Source of the DNA: an uncultured SAR86 cluster bacterium
GTDB lineage: Bacteria; Pseudomonadota; Gammaproteobacteria; Magnimaribacterales; AG-339-G14
NCBI GenBank assembly: GCA_902587545.1
Contig: CACILL010000001.1
Coordinates: 396,022 to 460,021 of the forward strand
Direction of reading: 5' to 3'
Length of the DNA stretch: 64,000 bases
How positions within the stretch are numbered: the stretch's first letter is position 1; each line of letters begins with the position of its first letter. The notes below the pieces were generated by a model. That model made no database searches, had not been told where the DNA came from, and saw nothing but the letters and a program-made list of their open reading frames with translations. Positions 33,369 to 38,755 of the stretch are shown piece by piece. A program made the translations under genes and the position numbers.

Positions 33369-33995
33369 TTATTTTCCTCTGATTCTTTCAATTATTAGGC
33401 CGATTAGTAACAAAAATACAAATAAGGCAAATCTTAAATCGGTAATGAAAGGAGTTTCTACAGGGATGGCTATCGTCTTATCTAAGGCCTCAACTTTGTA
33501 TTCATGCCTTTCATCAAAAACAGGATTCAGACCGATTTCAAACAAATCTCTTCTGCTTCTGTATCTAAATATTGCAACAATGTCCCAGTCCTCCATTCCT
33601 TGGGCAGCAACGATATCCAGAGCAGGATTTAAAACAAAAGCAAAGAATACGGGATGTGAAGCTCTTTTAAACTGTTGTGGCCACATGTATTCCATGTAGT
33701 GCATCTGCAAATCTAATGAAGTTGCTCCTTCTCCAGTAGCTTCCATGGTTCGCGGTGATTCGTTTCTATCAAGAAAGTTCACCATATAAAAGTCTTTGCC
33801 ATCATCTTCACTCATGAACTTGAACGCGATTTCCCATTGCTCAGAATCTCTTCTATCAGAATTACTTTCCTCGAAGATTTTTTTGTAGGTTTCAATCTCT
33901 TGATCTGTAAGAGGACCGGATAAGTTCGTGTACCAGAGAAAAAAAACTGTATAAACAACTACGATAGGAAGCCAAAGCTTAATATTGAATTTCAT
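33369..33995 (-). CDS. Hypothetical protein with TM helices at both the N- and C-termini
   Basis: It is 208 aa. I recognise no family. Confidence 0.5.
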   Translation of the reverse strand: MKFNIKLWLPIVVVYTVFFLWYTNLSGPLTDQEIETYKKIFEESNSDRRDSEQWEIAFKFMSEDDGKDFYMVNFLDRNESPRTMEATGEGATSLDLQMHYMEYMWPQQFKRASHPVFFAFVLNPALDIVAAQGMEDWDIVAIFRYRSRRDLFEIGLNPVFDERHEYKVEALDKTIAIPVETPFITDLRFALFVFLLLIGLIIERIRGK

Positions 33996-34005
33996 TAAAT
34001 CCCTC

Positions 34006-34794
34006 TTAGTCTTTTAAAAACATTACCATTTTATGTCTTTTAGGTCTTCGATTTTTAAATTCTGCAATCGAAGTTTCTTTGAAGTTTGAATTTCTACCTC
34101 CAGAAAAGCTTCTGCCTAAAATATACGCTTTGCTATAACCAGAATCTTGCAAAATTTGTATTGAAGACATGCAGTTCTTTAAATTTCTTGTCATCTCCAT
34201 TTCCAAAGAAACTACTGGAGAATCAGAAAGAAGAATGTCTTTAGCTCCTCTTAAGGCAGCTTCTTCATGCCCTTCTATATCTATTTTTAAGTAAGATATT
34301 TTCCCTAAATTATTTTCGGATTTAAAATTATCAAGTTTCTCAACCTGAAAGATCTCATTTGATTCCAAATCTTCAACAATTTTGCCTGAGCTAAGATTTC
34401 CTTTATCAACAAAAGCTTTTAAAGCCTCTTTTTTGTCGGATAGACCTAAATTAAGTGGCGTAATATTGCTTACTGATGAAGCATTGATCTCTAGAAGCTT
34501 AAAAACTTCTTTATTTGGTTCAAAAGAAAAAACTCTTTCAAAGATTCTTGAAAAGAATAATGAATGATTACCAATGTTAGCTCCCGCGTCTATGCAAATC
34601 TTTTTGTCGAGTTGCATTGACGAAAAAAACTTTTCTACGGCATAAAGCTCTCGTTTCTCAAACCACCCATCTAAAATGATTTTATGGGTAATGTAATCAT
34701 TTGCATAAGTAGCAATAGGTAAATTGATTAAAGAACTTTTTTTTGCAGCACGTTTTATTGCTCTTGAGAGAATAAATCTAGTAAGTAGATTCAT
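34006..34794 (-). CDS. FkbM-family methyltransferase
   Basis: It has CIDAGANIGNHSLFFS and LKIDIEGHEEAAL, both typical of FkbM. Confidence 0.7.
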   Translation of the reverse strand: MNLLTRFILSRAIKRAAKKSSLINLPIATYANDYITHKIILDGWFEKRELYAVEKFFSSMQLDKKICIDAGANIGNHSLFFSRIFERVFSFEPNKEVFKLLEINASSVSNITPLNLGLSDKKEALKAFVDKGNLSSGKIVEDLESNEIFQVEKLDNFKSENNLGKISYLKIDIEGHEEAALRGAKDILLSDSPVVSLEMEMTRNLKNCMSSIQILQDSGYSKAYILGRSFSGGRNSNFKETSIAEFKNRRPKRHKMVMFLKD

Positions 34795-34817
34795 GATGAT
34801 TTCTGAGTTTCTTTTTC

Positions 34818-35363
34818 TTATTGTGCATTAGTTTTTGTTTGCCAAAATTTAAGCATCTTTAAAGTTGTATCGTCTTTTGCAAAAAAATGATGATAAAGAG
34901 CTGCGCCAATGTGGATGATAATTAATAGTATGATTGCATTTGTACAAAACTCATGAAAACCTCTAATCAGATGAAAGGTGCTTTGATTGTGAAGTGCAAA
35001 AGCCAAATCGATGCCAAAAACTATTATTGGGTCTGAAGCAAAGCTCGCCATTGATATTCCGGTAATTATGAGCCCTGCCATAAGAAAATATAAAGAATAA
35101 TGTCCTAATTTTGCAGAAGCTACCTGCCAGGCAGGCATCGTTGATGGTAGTTTTGGGGCTCCATAAAAATATCGTAATATTATTCTTAATATAAATAAGA
35201 AAGTTACGATCATACCGGCTGTTGCATGATCAGATCGTGACTCAAGTCTGTCCCATAGTTCCATATTGCCGCCAAACTTTTGGGCGACATTAAGATCCAA
35301 CATGATAATAATTGCCATAAGCCAATGGATTATTTTCTGTGTCTTTAAGTAATCAATAGTCAT
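34818..35363 (-). CDS. Cytochrome b561 family protein
   Basis: It has 4 TM helices with conserved His residues (IHWLMA, and HxxxxxxH near the C-terminus). Confidence 0.75.
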   Translation of the reverse strand: MTIDYLKTQKIIHWLMAIIIMLDLNVAQKFGGNMELWDRLESRSDHATAGMIVTFLFILRIILRYFYGAPKLPSTMPAWQVASAKLGHYSLYFLMAGLIITGISMASFASDPIIVFGIDLAFALHNQSTFHLIRGFHEFCTNAIILLIIIHIGAALYHHFFAKDDTTLKMLKFWQTKTNAQ

Positions 35364-35416
35364 AAATTATCAAGAAAAAAACTTCTTATATTCATATTAG
35401 AATGCGTTGAGATCAT

Positions 35417-36850
35417 TTGAAGTATTCTAGTCCAGTGAATATTGTTTTGCTTCATAAAAATTTAAGAATTTCTGATAATTCTGCTTTGTATCATGGCTGT
35501 AATACTGACAAATCTTTGATCATATACGCATACGATAAAGACTATTGGAGTAACAATGGAAAATCAGAAAGACAATTTCAATTTTGTCTCGACTCTTTAG
35601 GAGAGTTAGATGAAAAACTCAATAAACTTAATAGAGATTTGTTCATCTTTGAGGGCGATCTTGATGAACTTGCTTTGTGGATAGACAAAAGCTTTCCTGA
35701 GTCTAAAATTTTTTTGAATCAATCAACCGACATTCATTATCACAGAAATCTTAAAGCGAAGTTCATTAGCAAGTTTGAAGACTCTGGAAGATTGTATGAA
35801 TTTGCAGATTTTGGAATTCAAACAAAAAATCACAACAGAGATGACTGGTCTTCAAATTGGCATAGGATAATGACTCAGAAAATATTACCACCTCCACAAA
35901 TTAACTATTCCTCAAAAATTAAGCCCAAAGATTTATTAGATTTTAAAGCATTTAAAAAAAAGCTATCTCTTGTAGATCCAAAAAATAATAGTTTTCAGCT
36001 TGGTGGCGAAGATAAAGCAAAAAAACTTCTTTCATCTTTTTTAGAAAAGCGGATGGATGGATATTCAATAAAAATGTCCAGTCCCGTTGAAGCTGAACAT
36101 TCTTGTTCTAGATTATCCCCACACATATCGTTTGGAACAATATCATTAAGAACTATTTTTCAAGAAGTTCAGAAAAGTATGAATAGCTCCCTTTTCAGAA
36201 AAGACCTTTACTCATTTAAAAAAAGGCTTCACTGGCATTGTCATTTTATTCAAAAGCTTGAAACCGAGCCTGAATTAGAATTCAAATCCATGCATCCAAT
36301 GTGTGATTCTTTGAGAGAGGAAGAGAATGATGAACTTATAGAGAAATGGATTGCAGGAGAAACAGGTTTTCCGTTCTTGGACGCTTGCATGGTTTTCTTG
36401 AAAGAAAAAGGTTGGATTAATTTTAGAATGCGAGCAATGATCATGTCTTTTGCCTCTTATAACTTGTGGCAGCCTTGGCAAAAAACTTCACCTCGTCTTG
36501 CTGAACTTTTTGTTGATTACGAACCAGGCATTCACATATGCCAAGTGCAAATGCAAAGTGGCGTAACGGGTATCAATCTCCCAAGAATATACTCAGTCTT
36601 AAAACAAAGTAGCGACCAAGATCCATCTGCAAAGTGGATTAAAGGCCAAATTAATTCTTTAAAAAATATAGAGCCAAAAAACATTCACGAAGCAGAATTA
36701 AATGAGATCTATCTTGAAAAAATAGTAGACCTGAAAGCTTCGGCAAAAAAAGCTCGAGAAACAATTTGGTCGGTAAGAAAAGGTTCTGACTTCAAGAAAA
36801 TTGCTAAAGACGTTTACCTGAAACACGGCAGCAGACTCAGAAGAGCTTAG
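35417..36850 (+). CDS. Cryptochrome/photolyase family (CPF) protein
   Basis: It has a TTG start. The N-terminal block LHKNLRISDNSAL matches the photolyase alpha/beta domain. The FAD-domain blocks are GETGFPFLDACMVFLKEKGWINFRMRAM and HWHCHFIQKLE. Confidence 0.8.
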   Translation: MKYSSPVNIVLLHKNLRISDNSALYHGCNTDKSLIIYAYDKDYWSNNGKSERQFQFCLDSLGELDEKLNKLNRDLFIFEGDLDELALWIDKSFPESKIFLNQSTDIHYHRNLKAKFISKFEDSGRLYEFADFGIQTKNHNRDDWSSNWHRIMTQKILPPPQINYSSKIKPKDLLDFKAFKKKLSLVDPKNNSFQLGGEDKAKKLLSSFLEKRMDGYSIKMSSPVEAEHSCSRLSPHISFGTISLRTIFQEVQKSMNSSLFRKDLYSFKKRLHWHCHFIQKLETEPELEFKSMHPMCDSLREEENDELIEKWIAGETGFPFLDACMVFLKEKGWINFRMRAMIMSFASYNLWQPWQKTSPRLAELFVDYEPGIHICQVQMQSGVTGINLPRIYSVLKQSSDQDPSAKWIKGQINSLKNIEPKNIHEAELNEIYLEKIVDLKASAKKARETIWSVRKGSDFKKIAKDVYLKHGSRLRRA

Positions 36851-36853
36851 CCT

Positions 36854-37225
36854 TTAGTCTAAGTCAATTGCATATTTCTTAAGAATCTCTAAATCAATAA
36901 TTTTTACAGACTTTCTATTTGTTCTTCTTAAAAAGATTTTAGGGGCCTTATCGTTCTCATAAGCTTCTTTCCAACGTTCTGCACAAACGCACCAGTGATC
37001 ACCCTCCTTTAGACCTGGAAAATTAAATTCTTCTCTTGGCGTAGAAAGATCGTTACCTCTTGATTTAGAAAATTCTAGAAAATCATCTGTTATGTATGCA
37101 CAAACAACATGCAAGCCCTGATCCAAATTATCGGTGTGACAAAATCCATCTCGAAAGAAACCAGTAATAGGATTTGAACAACATTCCTCTATTTCTTCTT
37201 CGAAAACATTGAATTGTTTTTCCAT
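36854..37225 (-). CDS. DUF2237 family protein
   Basis: It is 123 aa. The Cys/His pattern CCSNPITGFFRDGFCHT...GDHWCVCAERW matches my recollection of DUF2237. Confidence 0.7.
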   Translation of the reverse strand: MEKQFNVFEEEIEECCSNPITGFFRDGFCHTDNLDQGLHVVCAYITDDFLEFSKSRGNDLSTPREEFNFPGLKEGDHWCVCAERWKEAYENDKAPKIFLRRTNRKSVKIIDLEILKKYAIDLD

Positions 37226-37226
37226 T

Positions 37227-37613
37227 TTAGGTGACCACCAAAATTATGAGGCAGAGTATTAAAGTTAATAGAGTAAGTATTACACTCAACAAGTGCAGAT
37301 ACTTAAAACTTTTATCTCTGCCTTCATCCCTTGCTTTGTTTGTTGCCGGAACGATCAGATACGAAATACTCATAAATAAAAAAGAAATAAAAAAAAGTAT
37401 TTGAAGCGAAAGACGATCACCAATTACTGATAAGACAACTCCTATGAGACTGAGAACTGCTACATTTAAAAATAATTTTGGAAAAATAGCTCTTAGAAAG
37501 GGTCCGGCTTGTTCTTCAGAGTACACTTTAAAAATAGTAGGAGCATTTAAAGCAGCCTGAAATAAAATCATTCCAGCCATTAGGCCCGCAAGAAAAAGAT
37601 ATAAATTGTTCAT
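37227..37613 (-). CDS. 4-TM membrane protein, DUF4149/TMEM205-like
   Basis: It is 128 aa with four helices. The family assignment is from memory only. Confidence 0.5.
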   Translation of the reverse strand: MNNLYLFLAGLMAGMILFQAALNAPTIFKVYSEEQAGPFLRAIFPKLFLNVAVLSLIGVVLSVIGDRLSLQILFFISFLFMSISYLIVPATNKARDEGRDKSFKYLHLLSVILTLLTLILCLIILVVT

Positions 37614-37617
37614 AAAA

Positions 37618-38388
37618 TTACTCTTCTGTTAGTGATTTTGCCCATAAAGAAATATCTGGTACTTCTTGGGCGTCGAAAATAAATTCTTGGCCAGGGCCAA
37701 TATTTGTATCGACTAATAATTTTCTATTGTCTTTCCATTTTAGACGGTTTAAAAAAATATTACTCTTCTTCTTAGCAGCACTAGCAAAATATTTTTGGGG
37801 AAACTGCCACATAGATTTCTTGTGGTTAGGAGCGCTAAGCACTAGTTTTTTAGAAAATTTTTTGAATAAGCCAAAATTTTTTCTTGATACATAAATTGTA
37901 TTGTTTTTATATTTTCGATATTTTGGATCGTGTGGATGTGAAAGATTGTGTTTTTTTAAAAAATTAGAAATCTGTTTGTCACCTTCCAAGATTTCTTCAA
38001 TTTGTAACCAACCAAAAATTTTATGGATATCAATTTTTGGATTTTCTGTCTTTTTAAACCAGCCAAAAAATAAAAAAAGATCTCCTATACCTACATCATT
38101 ATTTTTAAGCTCAGATTGTGCACTACCCGCCTGTCCAAAAAGTCCAATTTTGTCGTTAAGGGCGGGATCATAATGGCAAAAGTCTTCTGAAGTTACCTGC
38201 GTGGCTGAAACTTCCTTCAAAGCTTGAGTTCCATTGATACCGTTGAATTTAAGCTCATGATATTTTTTTGGAGATTTTCCATTTTGAGGAATAGGAAGAG
38301 AGAAAATATCATCATTCTTAAATATGGGTGAAGGTCTACCTCCATATTTTGAATCAAATCCTTTTCTGCTTAAAATAACTCTTTTCAT
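37618..38388 (-). CDS. Conserved hypothetical protein, Nmad3-like (nucleotide-modification-associated domain 3) by N-terminal motif
   Basis: I placed the start at the internal Met (MKRVILSRKGFDS...), because the longer ORF to 38412 would overlap the divergent arsC-family start. The motif ILSRKGFDSKYGGRPSPIF...SLPIP matches the family N-terminus as I recall it. Confidence 0.5.
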   Translation of the reverse strand: MKRVILSRKGFDSKYGGRPSPIFKNDDIFSLPIPQNGKSPKKYHELKFNGINGTQALKEVSATQVTSEDFCHYDPALNDKIGLFGQAGSAQSELKNNDVGIGDLFLFFGWFKKTENPKIDIHKIFGWLQIEEILEGDKQISNFLKKHNLSHPHDPKYRKYKNNTIYVSRKNFGLFKKFSKKLVLSAPNHKKSMWQFPQKYFASAAKKKSNIFLNRLKWKDNRKLLVDTNIGPGQEFIFDAQEVPDISLWAKSLTEE

Positions 38389-38404
38389 AAAATGATTTGT
38401 AACT

Positions 38405-38755
38405 ATGGCCAAAGCTTTTCTTTTTCACAACCCTAGGTGCAGCAAGTCTAGACAAGCCCTAAATCTCCTTGAGCAAGAAAAAGAAAATTTTGAGGTTTTC
38501 ATGTATCTCGATGAGAAACTCGAAAAAGACTTTTTGAAAGAAATAATTCAAAAACTTGGTATCAGCCCAAGAGATCTTTTGAGGAGAGGAGAATCTGCAT
38601 ATAAAGAGAATAACTTAAAAGATTCTAATATTTCAGAAGAAGAAATCATTAATTTAATGATTGAATATCCCAAGCTGATTGAAAGACCAATTTATGTAAA
38701 AGGGTCTAAAGCTATAGTTGGCAGGCCGCCAGAGAATGTTTTGAAGATTATCTAA
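38405..38755 (+). CDS. ArsC-family (arsenate reductase/Spx-like fold) protein
   Basis: It has the active-site region HNPRCSKSRQAL, a C-terminal LIERPI motif, and a length of 116 aa. Confidence 0.8.
   Translation: MAKAFLFHNPRCSKSRQALNLLEQEKENFEVFMYLDEKLEKDFLKEIIQKLGISPRDLLRRGESAYKENNLKDSNISEEEIINLMIEYPKLIERPIYVKGSKAIVGRPPENVLKII

Follow-up and report, generated by a model that had tools for sequence, protein, structure and literature searches.

The 64-kb stretch of DNA from an uncultured SAR86 cluster bacterium considered here (contig CACILL010000001.1, 64,000 nucleotides; the whole of it is called the window below) carries three head-to-tail minus-strand genes of the families Nmad3, DUF4149 and DUF2237, which abut a convergent gene of the cryptochrome/photolyase family (CPF). 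The original prediction saw in them a possible light- or DNA-damage-linked module, in which a putative nucleotide-modification domain is paired with a light-dependent DNA-repair or photoreceptor homolog. The adjacency of the three genes does not recur in phylogenetically independent genomes, and the locus is probably a piece of ordinary, gene-dense SAR86 chromosome with inherited synteny, in which the three genes are independent or loosely related and form no dedicated module. What is seen is ordinary synteny among known uncharacterised families; the stable element within it is at most the DUF4149-DUF2237 pair with the convergent CPF gene and a cytochrome b561 (cyt b561) gene, which occurs in two SAR86 sublineages. 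Nmad3, DUF4149, DUF2237 and CPF are real genes, and 2017, 2695 and 7978 homologs were found for Nmad3, DUF2237 and CPF, respectively. The features at issue are as follows, by position in the window.

34818-35363, minus strand: cyt b561 gene (PF01292, E 9e-23)
35364-35416, no strand: intergenic region between the divergent cyt b561 and CPF genes, holding the conserved motif CTTCTTATATTCATAT at 35382-35397
35417-36850, plus strand: CPF gene, convergent to the three genes, 477 amino acids (aa) (PF00875, DNA_photolyase, E 9e-13; PF03441, FAD_binding_7, E 1.5e-45)
36854-37225, minus strand: DUF2237 gene (Pfam PF09996 / COG3651), 123 aa
37227-37613, minus strand: DUF4149 gene (Pfam PF13664), 128 aa
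37618-38388, minus strand: Nmad3 gene (PF18754), 256 aa from the ATG (264 aa in the longest open reading frame (ORF), from a TTG at 38412)

In a scan of species-representative genomes with the Nmad3 alignment, the loci closest to the window came from SAR86 single-cell and metagenome-assembled genomes, with Nmad3 proteins 94% identical in L001 (single-cell genome AG-325-B03, with flanks of about 92% nucleotide (nt) identity) and 93% identical in L002 (MED701). Among the best 80 of 553 Nmad3 relatives in such genomes, DUF4149 lies directly beside Nmad3 and is followed by DUF2237 in four loci (L001, L002, L003 and L019), all of them from the window's own SAR86 sublineage, with Nmad3 identity as low as 66% in L003. 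The other 76 loci, which include about 15 other SAR86 (46-52% identity), SAR116, and soil and freshwater bacteria (30-37%), have no DUF2237 or CPF gene within 6 kb, and DUF4149 appears near Nmad3 in a single one of them (L031), about 2 kb away and not adjacent. A comparison made from the side of DUF2237, with 80 metagenome loci at 50-92% identity and DUF4149 sought by a custom hidden Markov model (HMM), placed Nmad3 and DUF4149 beside DUF2237 in one locus (L081, 92% identity); no DUF4149, CPF or Nmad3 was found nearby in the other 79, where at least 500 nt were available upstream in 58 and at least 1500 nt downstream in 47. Together with L171 and L172, these loci confine the three-gene arrangement to the window's sublineage, and the proposed module did not survive the check. 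Gene order at the related loci was as follows.

Group A (window, L002, and L171/L172, with CPF 75% identical): FAH-EamA-[ArsC]-Nmad3-DUF4149-DUF2237-[CPF]-cyt b561
Group A′ (L001, L003, L019, L081): the order of group A without CPF
Group B (L164, L165, L170, L175): FAH-…-ECH-(ABM)-DUF4149-DUF2237-(GFA)-[CPF]-cyt b561-NAGidase, without Nmad3
Group C (L176): DUF4149 abuts cyt b561, CPF is 5 kb off beside unrelated genes, and no DUF2237 is present in 21 kb
Group D (L161-163, L166-167 and nine metagenome loci): an overlapping 64-aa ORF before DUF2237 instead of DUF4149, with umuDC after it in L161
Other (L178, L179): CPF orthologs beside peroxiredoxin, or beside TPR and 2-hydroxyacid dehydrogenase genes

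The proteins of group B are 68% (DUF2237), 46% (DUF4149), 60% (CPF) and 70% (cyt b561) identical to those of the window. DUF4149 stands directly upstream of DUF2237 in both groups A and B at 46-66% identity, and the position and orientation of cyt b561 are the same in L164, L170, L175, L171 and L172, so that the juxtaposition of DUF2237 and CPF, and with it the run DUF4149-DUF2237-CPF-cyt b561, recurs in a second SAR86 sublineage and in no further one. In group A loci, ArsC, EamA and Nmad3 together form an insert that is missing at the matching position in group B. The single-cell SAR86 genome AG-892-C21 holds both parts unlinked, with Nmad3 on contig 3 (L018) and DUF4149-DUF2237-CPF on contig 2 (L175). 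A 260-aa gene beside CPF in L176 was checked as a possible diverged Nmad3 and is not one.

The search for partners of Nmad3 led elsewhere. All-against-all clustering of its neighbours revealed no conserved partner, and its immediate neighbours (n = 109, Pfam) are heterogeneous, the commonest being Nmad2 (5), a Zn-peptidase (5, in one SAR86 group only) and NUDIX (3). The only recurrent partner found is Nmad2 (PF18753), which adjoins Nmad3 in 12-13 distant loci, mostly from soil and freshwater (listed are L026, L027, L038, L046, L049, L053, L054, L067, L071, L074 and L076), and is fused to it in L051 (5776-7266) and in protein P0445. Nmad2 is not near the Nmad3 loci of the marine SAR86/SAR116 clade, and tblastn gave no match to it below E 0.8 in the 64-kb window.

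The Nmad3 protein itself matches PF18754 over nearly its full length (E 4e-54; 184.4 bits against a cutoff of 27; model positions 1-245 of 247). Its translation almost certainly starts at the ATG at 38388 and not at the TTG at 38412, because its closest homologs, of 256-259 aa with the N-terminus MKR(V/I)ILSRKGFD, share that length and N-terminus. In an alignment of 78 sequences of roughly 30-100% identity, about 30 positions are at least 95% conserved. The N-terminal S-R-K-G-F-D is near-invariant (76-77/78, with F11 in 72/78), as the description of a soluble protein with a strongly conserved N-terminal motif had it; residues S7, R8, K9, D12 and H72 are each present in 77 of the 78, D74, D103, H122, H151, H153, Q234 and E235 are strictly invariant, and Q86, N163 and Y166 are conserved in at least 94%. 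All motifs conserved in at least 90% of the sequences are found in the window protein (S-R-K-G-F-D, P-I-P, H-x-D-P, G-Q, D-x-F-L-F-F-G, H…G-W, H-P-H, N…Y and G-Q-E). This pattern of conserved residues suggests an enzyme, probably a stand-alone one, and the invariant or near-invariant polar residues (S/R/K/D, HxD, HPH, QE) hint that it is possibly metal-dependent. A sequence-profile search of the PDB with the Nmad3 alignment gave no meaningful match (best E 0.089). An alignment-based AlphaFold2 model (pLDDT 91.5, pTM 0.91) compared by Foldseek with the PDB and BFVD returned weak matches (E 0.02-0.5, target-normalised TM-score 0.3-0.47) that were consistently PUA-like, including THYN1 (5j3e), PH1033 (1wmm), MJECL36 (2p5d), ZmASCH and YTH domains, as well as the N-domain of ATP sulfurylase and viral ASCH, EVE and DUF3850 proteins. 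PUA-like domains of the EVE, ASCH and YTH types bind modified bases. The family is small, with 2,350 clusters at 50% identity among 1.84 billion representatives, and its members are mostly single-domain proteins of 260-300 aa; a literature search on Nmad3 found no relevant paper.

An operon of Nmad3, DUF4149 and DUF2237 that works with CPF as a light or DNA-damage module, with Nmad3 as a modifier of nucleotides or DNA, is improbable. The coordinates are those predicted: 4 nt separate Nmad3 from DUF4149, 1 nt separates DUF4149 from DUF2237, and the stop codons of DUF2237 and the convergent CPF gene are 3 nt apart (36851-36853). The head-to-tail genes leave no space for internal promoters or terminators, and members of the window's sublineage keep the arrangement even where Nmad3 is 66% identical (L003) or CPF 75% identical (L171/L172); the weak PUA-like fold matches and the few Nmad3 neighbours elsewhere that are NUDIX or UvrD genes also speak for such a module. 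Against it stand the unlinked Nmad3 of AG-892-C21 and of the 76 other Nmad3 loci, the ECH or ABM genes that occupy the site upstream of DUF4149 in group B, the absence here of Nmad2 as the only recurrent partner, and a CPF gene that close relatives do without and whose product is missing the canonical repair residues (see below). Spacing, too, is no closer than elsewhere in the window, of which 97% is coding: among 52 same-strand junctions, 20 measure 4 nt or less (median 8.5 nt), and convergent junctions range from -29 to +22 nt. The gaps seen here (1, 4 and 3 nt) are thus usual for the window and uninformative on function; the caution in the original prediction that spacing is weak evidence for an operon was well placed. 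The three genes are nonetheless likely to be co-transcribed, simply since the space between them is too short to hold signals, as it is between most neighbouring genes. A scan for consensus promoters gave 16 promoter-like sites against 17.3 expected, and terminators were likewise at shuffle expectation; the single ‘terminator’ within Nmad3 is coding sequence of the conserved GPGQ motif.

The CPF gene is an accessory gene at this site, lost or replaced in close relatives. It is missing from the site in L001, L003, L019 and L081, which, with the separation seen in AG-892-C21, undoes the proposed pairing of Nmad3 with CPF. L001 shows about 92% nt identity with the window on both sides, without CPF and with a cyt b561 segment 76% identical; L171 shows 92% nt identity left of position 33944 and about 77% from 34832 on, and has no FkbM gene; L081 has neither CPF nor FkbM. 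Across relatives with flanks of about 92% identity, the cyt b561 segment is 76-79% identical. This uneven identity, together with the variable gene content, marks the segment at approximately 33.9-36.9 kb as a recombination mosaic, with the following coordinates.

Window: 33944-36850
L001: 7536-8971
L171: 4345-4430
L081: 1838-2438

The first Nmad domains to be described came from phage and conflict systems. The three genes could accordingly belong to an island that is mobile, derived from phage or active in anti-phage defence, for which the mosaic with its variably present CPF and FkbM genes would be suggestive, as would the listing of an ‘NMAD’ domain, of unspecified type, among predicted defence domains (PMC13092281). 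The three proteins have no PHROGs or PADLOC match, and the phage or defence reading is therefore rejected as very improbable. GC content is flat at approximately 34%, no match at the Rfam gathering threshold and no tRNA was found in scans of the whole 64-kb window, no integrase, transposase or other mobility gene occurs among the annotated neighbours within about 6 kb, and Nmad3 sits in chromosomal contexts across SAR86 sublineages.

The CPF protein belongs to the family as predicted, and as a canonical repair photolyase it does not stand. It scores under every NCBIfam subfamily cutoff (at most 95 bits, against cutoffs of 317-885), and its best PDB sequence match is the photolyase of S. tokodaii (2e0i, E 7.5e-29). 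In the photolyase of E. coli (Phr), E274, N341, M345, N378 and W384 are substrate-binding or catalytic residues, and W382, W359 and W306 form the Trp triad. A pairwise alignment of CPF to this protein (21% identity, literature numbering) gives the replacements E274 to R270, N341 to F336, M345 to A340, N378 to H373 and W306 to E301, and the segment that matches W382/W384 is without tryptophan (DYEPGIHICQVQMQSG); W277, W359, R342 and R344 are kept. The protein thus lacks the residues for repair of cyclobutane pyrimidine dimers (CPD) and two of the three triad tryptophans that a canonical class I CPD photolyase has. All 120 listed CPF homologs, of at least 56% identity, carry the motif D[YF]EPGIHIxQVQMQSG unchanged. 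The NewCRY subfamily (Emmerich et al. 2020, PMC7736829), which makes up about 8% of the superfamily and is represented by VcCry2 / VC1392, with which its members cluster in a sequence-similarity network (edge E < 1e-70), contains bacterial and haloarchaeal two-domain proteins once annotated as CPD photolyases that are without the equivalents of E274 and N341. The V. cholerae operon with VC1392 (VcCry2) is strongly up-regulated by blue light (PMC5241685). The window CPF fits the published description of the NewCRY class, and its replaced residues make it more likely a sensor or another non-canonical protein than a standard photolyase. Since its repair residues are missing, this SAR86 ‘photolyase’ should not count as DNA-repair capacity in ecological interpretation. 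In L179 (3070-4474), a CPF ortholog (60% identical) lies beside two divergently oriented genes, one for a 380-aa protein that has FAD_binding_7 but no antenna domain and one for a 92-aa protein with DNA_binding_1 (MGMT-like), which may represent another CPF-type cluster of a different kind.

DUF2237 is a small, soluble, Cys/His-rich single-domain protein with a conserved pocket. Its match to PF09996 (E 7e-51; 171 bits against a cutoff of 25), like those of the other proteins, upheld the family assignments of the original prediction in an HMM check with strong Pfam scores throughout, and it is 50-53% identical to proteins of solved structure (2LQ3, 4IOH and 3USH; E 1.5e-41, 2.5e-40 and 1.5e-38, respectively). 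An alignment of 16 sequences including these three has C15, H39, C42, C79 and C81 invariant, with C16 and C29 conserved in at least 90%, in agreement with the Cys/His-rich protein first described. The family is statistically associated with prokaryotes that bear rhodopsins or photosystems (PMC5932025; 2025 bioRxiv preprint), and its knockout in Synechocystis reduces phototaxis (PMC5932025). Marine enrichment and a conserved pocket that docks nucleotides in silico have also been published, and the CA4-A chromatic-acclimation island of marine Synechococcus contains a DUF2237 paralog, unk14. The statement that none of the three families has an experimentally defined function is therefore nearly right, with the reservation that DUF2237 has three structures and the Synechocystis knockout phenotype. 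A light connection for DUF2237 and CPF is plausible, and is already in the literature; a search for proteorhodopsin-like motifs within the 64-kb window found none.

The immediate neighbours of DUF2237 elsewhere (n = 114, Pfam) are heterogeneous and have a weak flavour of UV or oxidative stress, with MsrA (4), Y-family polymerase (4), glutathione synthetase (3) and DCC1-like thiol oxidoreductase (3). In L161 (8366-10056) a convergent umuC/umuD-like pair follows DUF2237. In other marine lineages, with DUF2237 72-80% identical, a conserved soluble ORF of 64-70 aa lies directly upstream, overlapping the DUF2237 start in 10 of 14 loci and separated from it by 1-3 nt in the rest, with the motifs GWNK[IL]FGKEED … NVGTPHDWEDY (L161 7820-8014; L166 5865-6059; L083 4496-4693; also L084, L086, L088, L090, L091, L093, L097 and L106). 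It matches no Pfam family and is not found in the window, and it may be a partner of DUF2237 that has escaped annotation and is coupled to it in translation.

DUF4149 matches PF13664 at E 1e-10 (42 bits against a cutoff of 24.6; model positions 2-99 of 102). Four hydrophobic segments can be read from its sequence, and it is predicted to be a four-helix membrane protein, in keeping with the four-transmembrane protein described at the outset. Its conserved motifs are GPFLRxIFPKLF and VPxTNxARD; a literature search on the family found nothing useful. In L176 (4388-5336) the cyt b561 gene begins 1 nt after DUF4149, with no DUF2237 or CPF gene between them, a hint that the link of DUF4149 with cyt b561 may be no weaker than its link with DUF2237.

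These properties bring a smaller, SAR86-specific light or redox module into consideration, made up of DUF4149, DUF2237, the NewCRY-type CPF and cyt b561, with Nmad3 as a bystander. Such a module is unlikely, although it is the foremost of the rival readings; slightly less likely still is its more specific form, in which DUF4149 and DUF2237 would act as a membrane-plus-soluble pair with a NewCRY flavoprotein and cyt b561 in sensing blue light or answering photo-oxidative stress, with Nmad3 outside. Its order and orientation are kept in groups A and B despite protein identities of 46-70% and rearranged flanks, the DUF4149-DUF2237 gap is 1-4 nt in all cases, and the cyt b561/CPF intergenic region holds a conserved motif. 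The association of DUF2237 with rhodopsins and photosystems, its phototaxis phenotype, its paralog in the chromatic-acclimation island, its redox and Y-family polymerase/UmuD neighbours elsewhere and the blue-light induction of the VcCry2 operon in V. cholerae all point the same way. Yet the block was found at none of the 79 other DUF2237 loci and not outside SAR86, and no more than two sublineages, related to each other, conserve it; it is broken up in L176, L178 and L179; close relatives without CPF keep DUF4149-DUF2237-cyt b561 intact; a GFA gene lies between DUF2237 and CPF in L164 and L170; and other marine lineages pair DUF2237 with the unrelated 64-aa ORF and not with DUF4149. The intergenic motif is probably a promoter or operator sequence. 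Further copies of it in the window are at chance level (2 matches against 1.5 expected) and thus give no sign of a regulon.

Inherited synteny without a dedicated module therefore remains the preferred explanation. Nmad3, with arsC and EamA, is a later arrival upstream of an older DUF4149-DUF2237 pair in one SAR86 sublineage only, and DUF4149-DUF2237, the convergent CPF and cyt b561 make up a small block inherited by two SAR86 sublineages and present in pieces elsewhere, with CPF as its accessory member. Under this explanation, Nmad3 would be a stand-alone enzyme whose partner, where it has one, is Nmad2; DUF2237 may work with the DUF4149 membrane protein in SAR86; and CPF would be a flavoprotein of NewCRY type in a sensory or other non-canonical role. 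Several observations weigh against this explanation. The four-gene block survives between two sublineages with reshuffled flanks, which could reflect selection for linkage rather than chance, and the motif CTTCTTATATTCATAT is shared by groups A and B, whose proteins have only about 60-70% of their residues in common. Nmad3 may also belong to a functional operon peculiar to its lineage. The families were compared by physical neighbourhood only, many of the metagenome loci are short, and the PUA-like matches of Nmad3 are weak and span part of its 256 residues. The block was not taken as proof of functional linkage, because its flanks show ordinary synteny decay and because a run of three junctions is not improbable: by a rough estimate, three consecutive junctions of about 13 survive by chance with a probability of approximately 0.3.

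Further neighbours in the window are genes for an FkbM methyltransferase, an EamA transporter and a fatty-acid hydroxylase, in addition to the following.

33369-33995: 208-aa ORF with an N-terminal hydrophobic segment, without Pfam family
38405-38755, plus strand: arsC, glutaredoxin-type arsenate reductase gene (TIGR00014, 129.5 bits against a cutoff of 106)

The position of the 208-aa ORF is kept in SAR86 relatives (L171 3770-4396, likewise without Pfam match). With the ATG start of Nmad3, this gene and arsC do not overlap; their divergent start codons are 16 nt apart (38389-38404 between them), so that each promoter must fall inside the coding sequence of the other gene.

As first framed, the arrangement of the three genes matters little, being confined to one lineage and set in a genome that leaves hardly any gap between genes. 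Its interest lies in the individual families. DUF2237 is among the most marine-enriched proteins of unknown function, and its association with light was already published; what is new is its context, with no universal partner, a position between DUF4149 and a NewCRY-type CPF in two SAR86 sublineages, and apparent translational coupling to an unannotated 64-aa ORF in other marine lineages. If the smaller module were real, it would be the first functional context for DUF2237 and NewCRY, two orphan families widespread in bacteria of the sunlit ocean. Nmad3 is a rare family with enzyme-like conserved residues whose real partner appears to be Nmad2, and functional work on it should begin from that partnership.

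Comparison with known systems places each protein more closely. Within the PF18754 family, the window Nmad3 has the full-length HMM match, all the family residues and the typical stand-alone size; its clade is marine and compact, drawn from SAR86, SAR116 and a few further groups, with identities of 46-94%, and no nucleotide-modification genes lie near it. With PUA-like domains (EVE/THYN1, ASCH, YTH) it shares consistent fold matches in two structure libraries, whereas its conserved His/Asp set, read from the Nmad3 alignment alone, is its own. CPF has the same two-domain architecture as the class I/III CPD photolyases (E. coli Phr, S. tokodaii 2e0i and A. tumefaciens PhrA 4u63), and differs from them in the replaced CPD-binding residues and two triad tryptophans. 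Like the NewCRY proteins, it is a bacterial two-domain protein without equivalents of E274 and N341, and is called ‘deoxyribodipyrimidine photo-lyase’ in some annotations; the window CPF clade, as read in this clade alone, is further without equivalents of W382, W384 and W306 and has His for N378. DUF2237 differs from its known relatives (2LQ3, 4IOH Tll1086, 3USH, Synechocystis slr1628, SAR11_1247 and Synechococcus unk14) in following a DUF4149 gene, a pairing seen only in SAR86 groups A and B and at 0 of 79 other loci. It is single-domain as they are, shares the conserved Cys/His residues of the solved structures, and comes from a marine clade that is listed alongside bacteria with rhodopsins, in line with the ecological bias published for the family.

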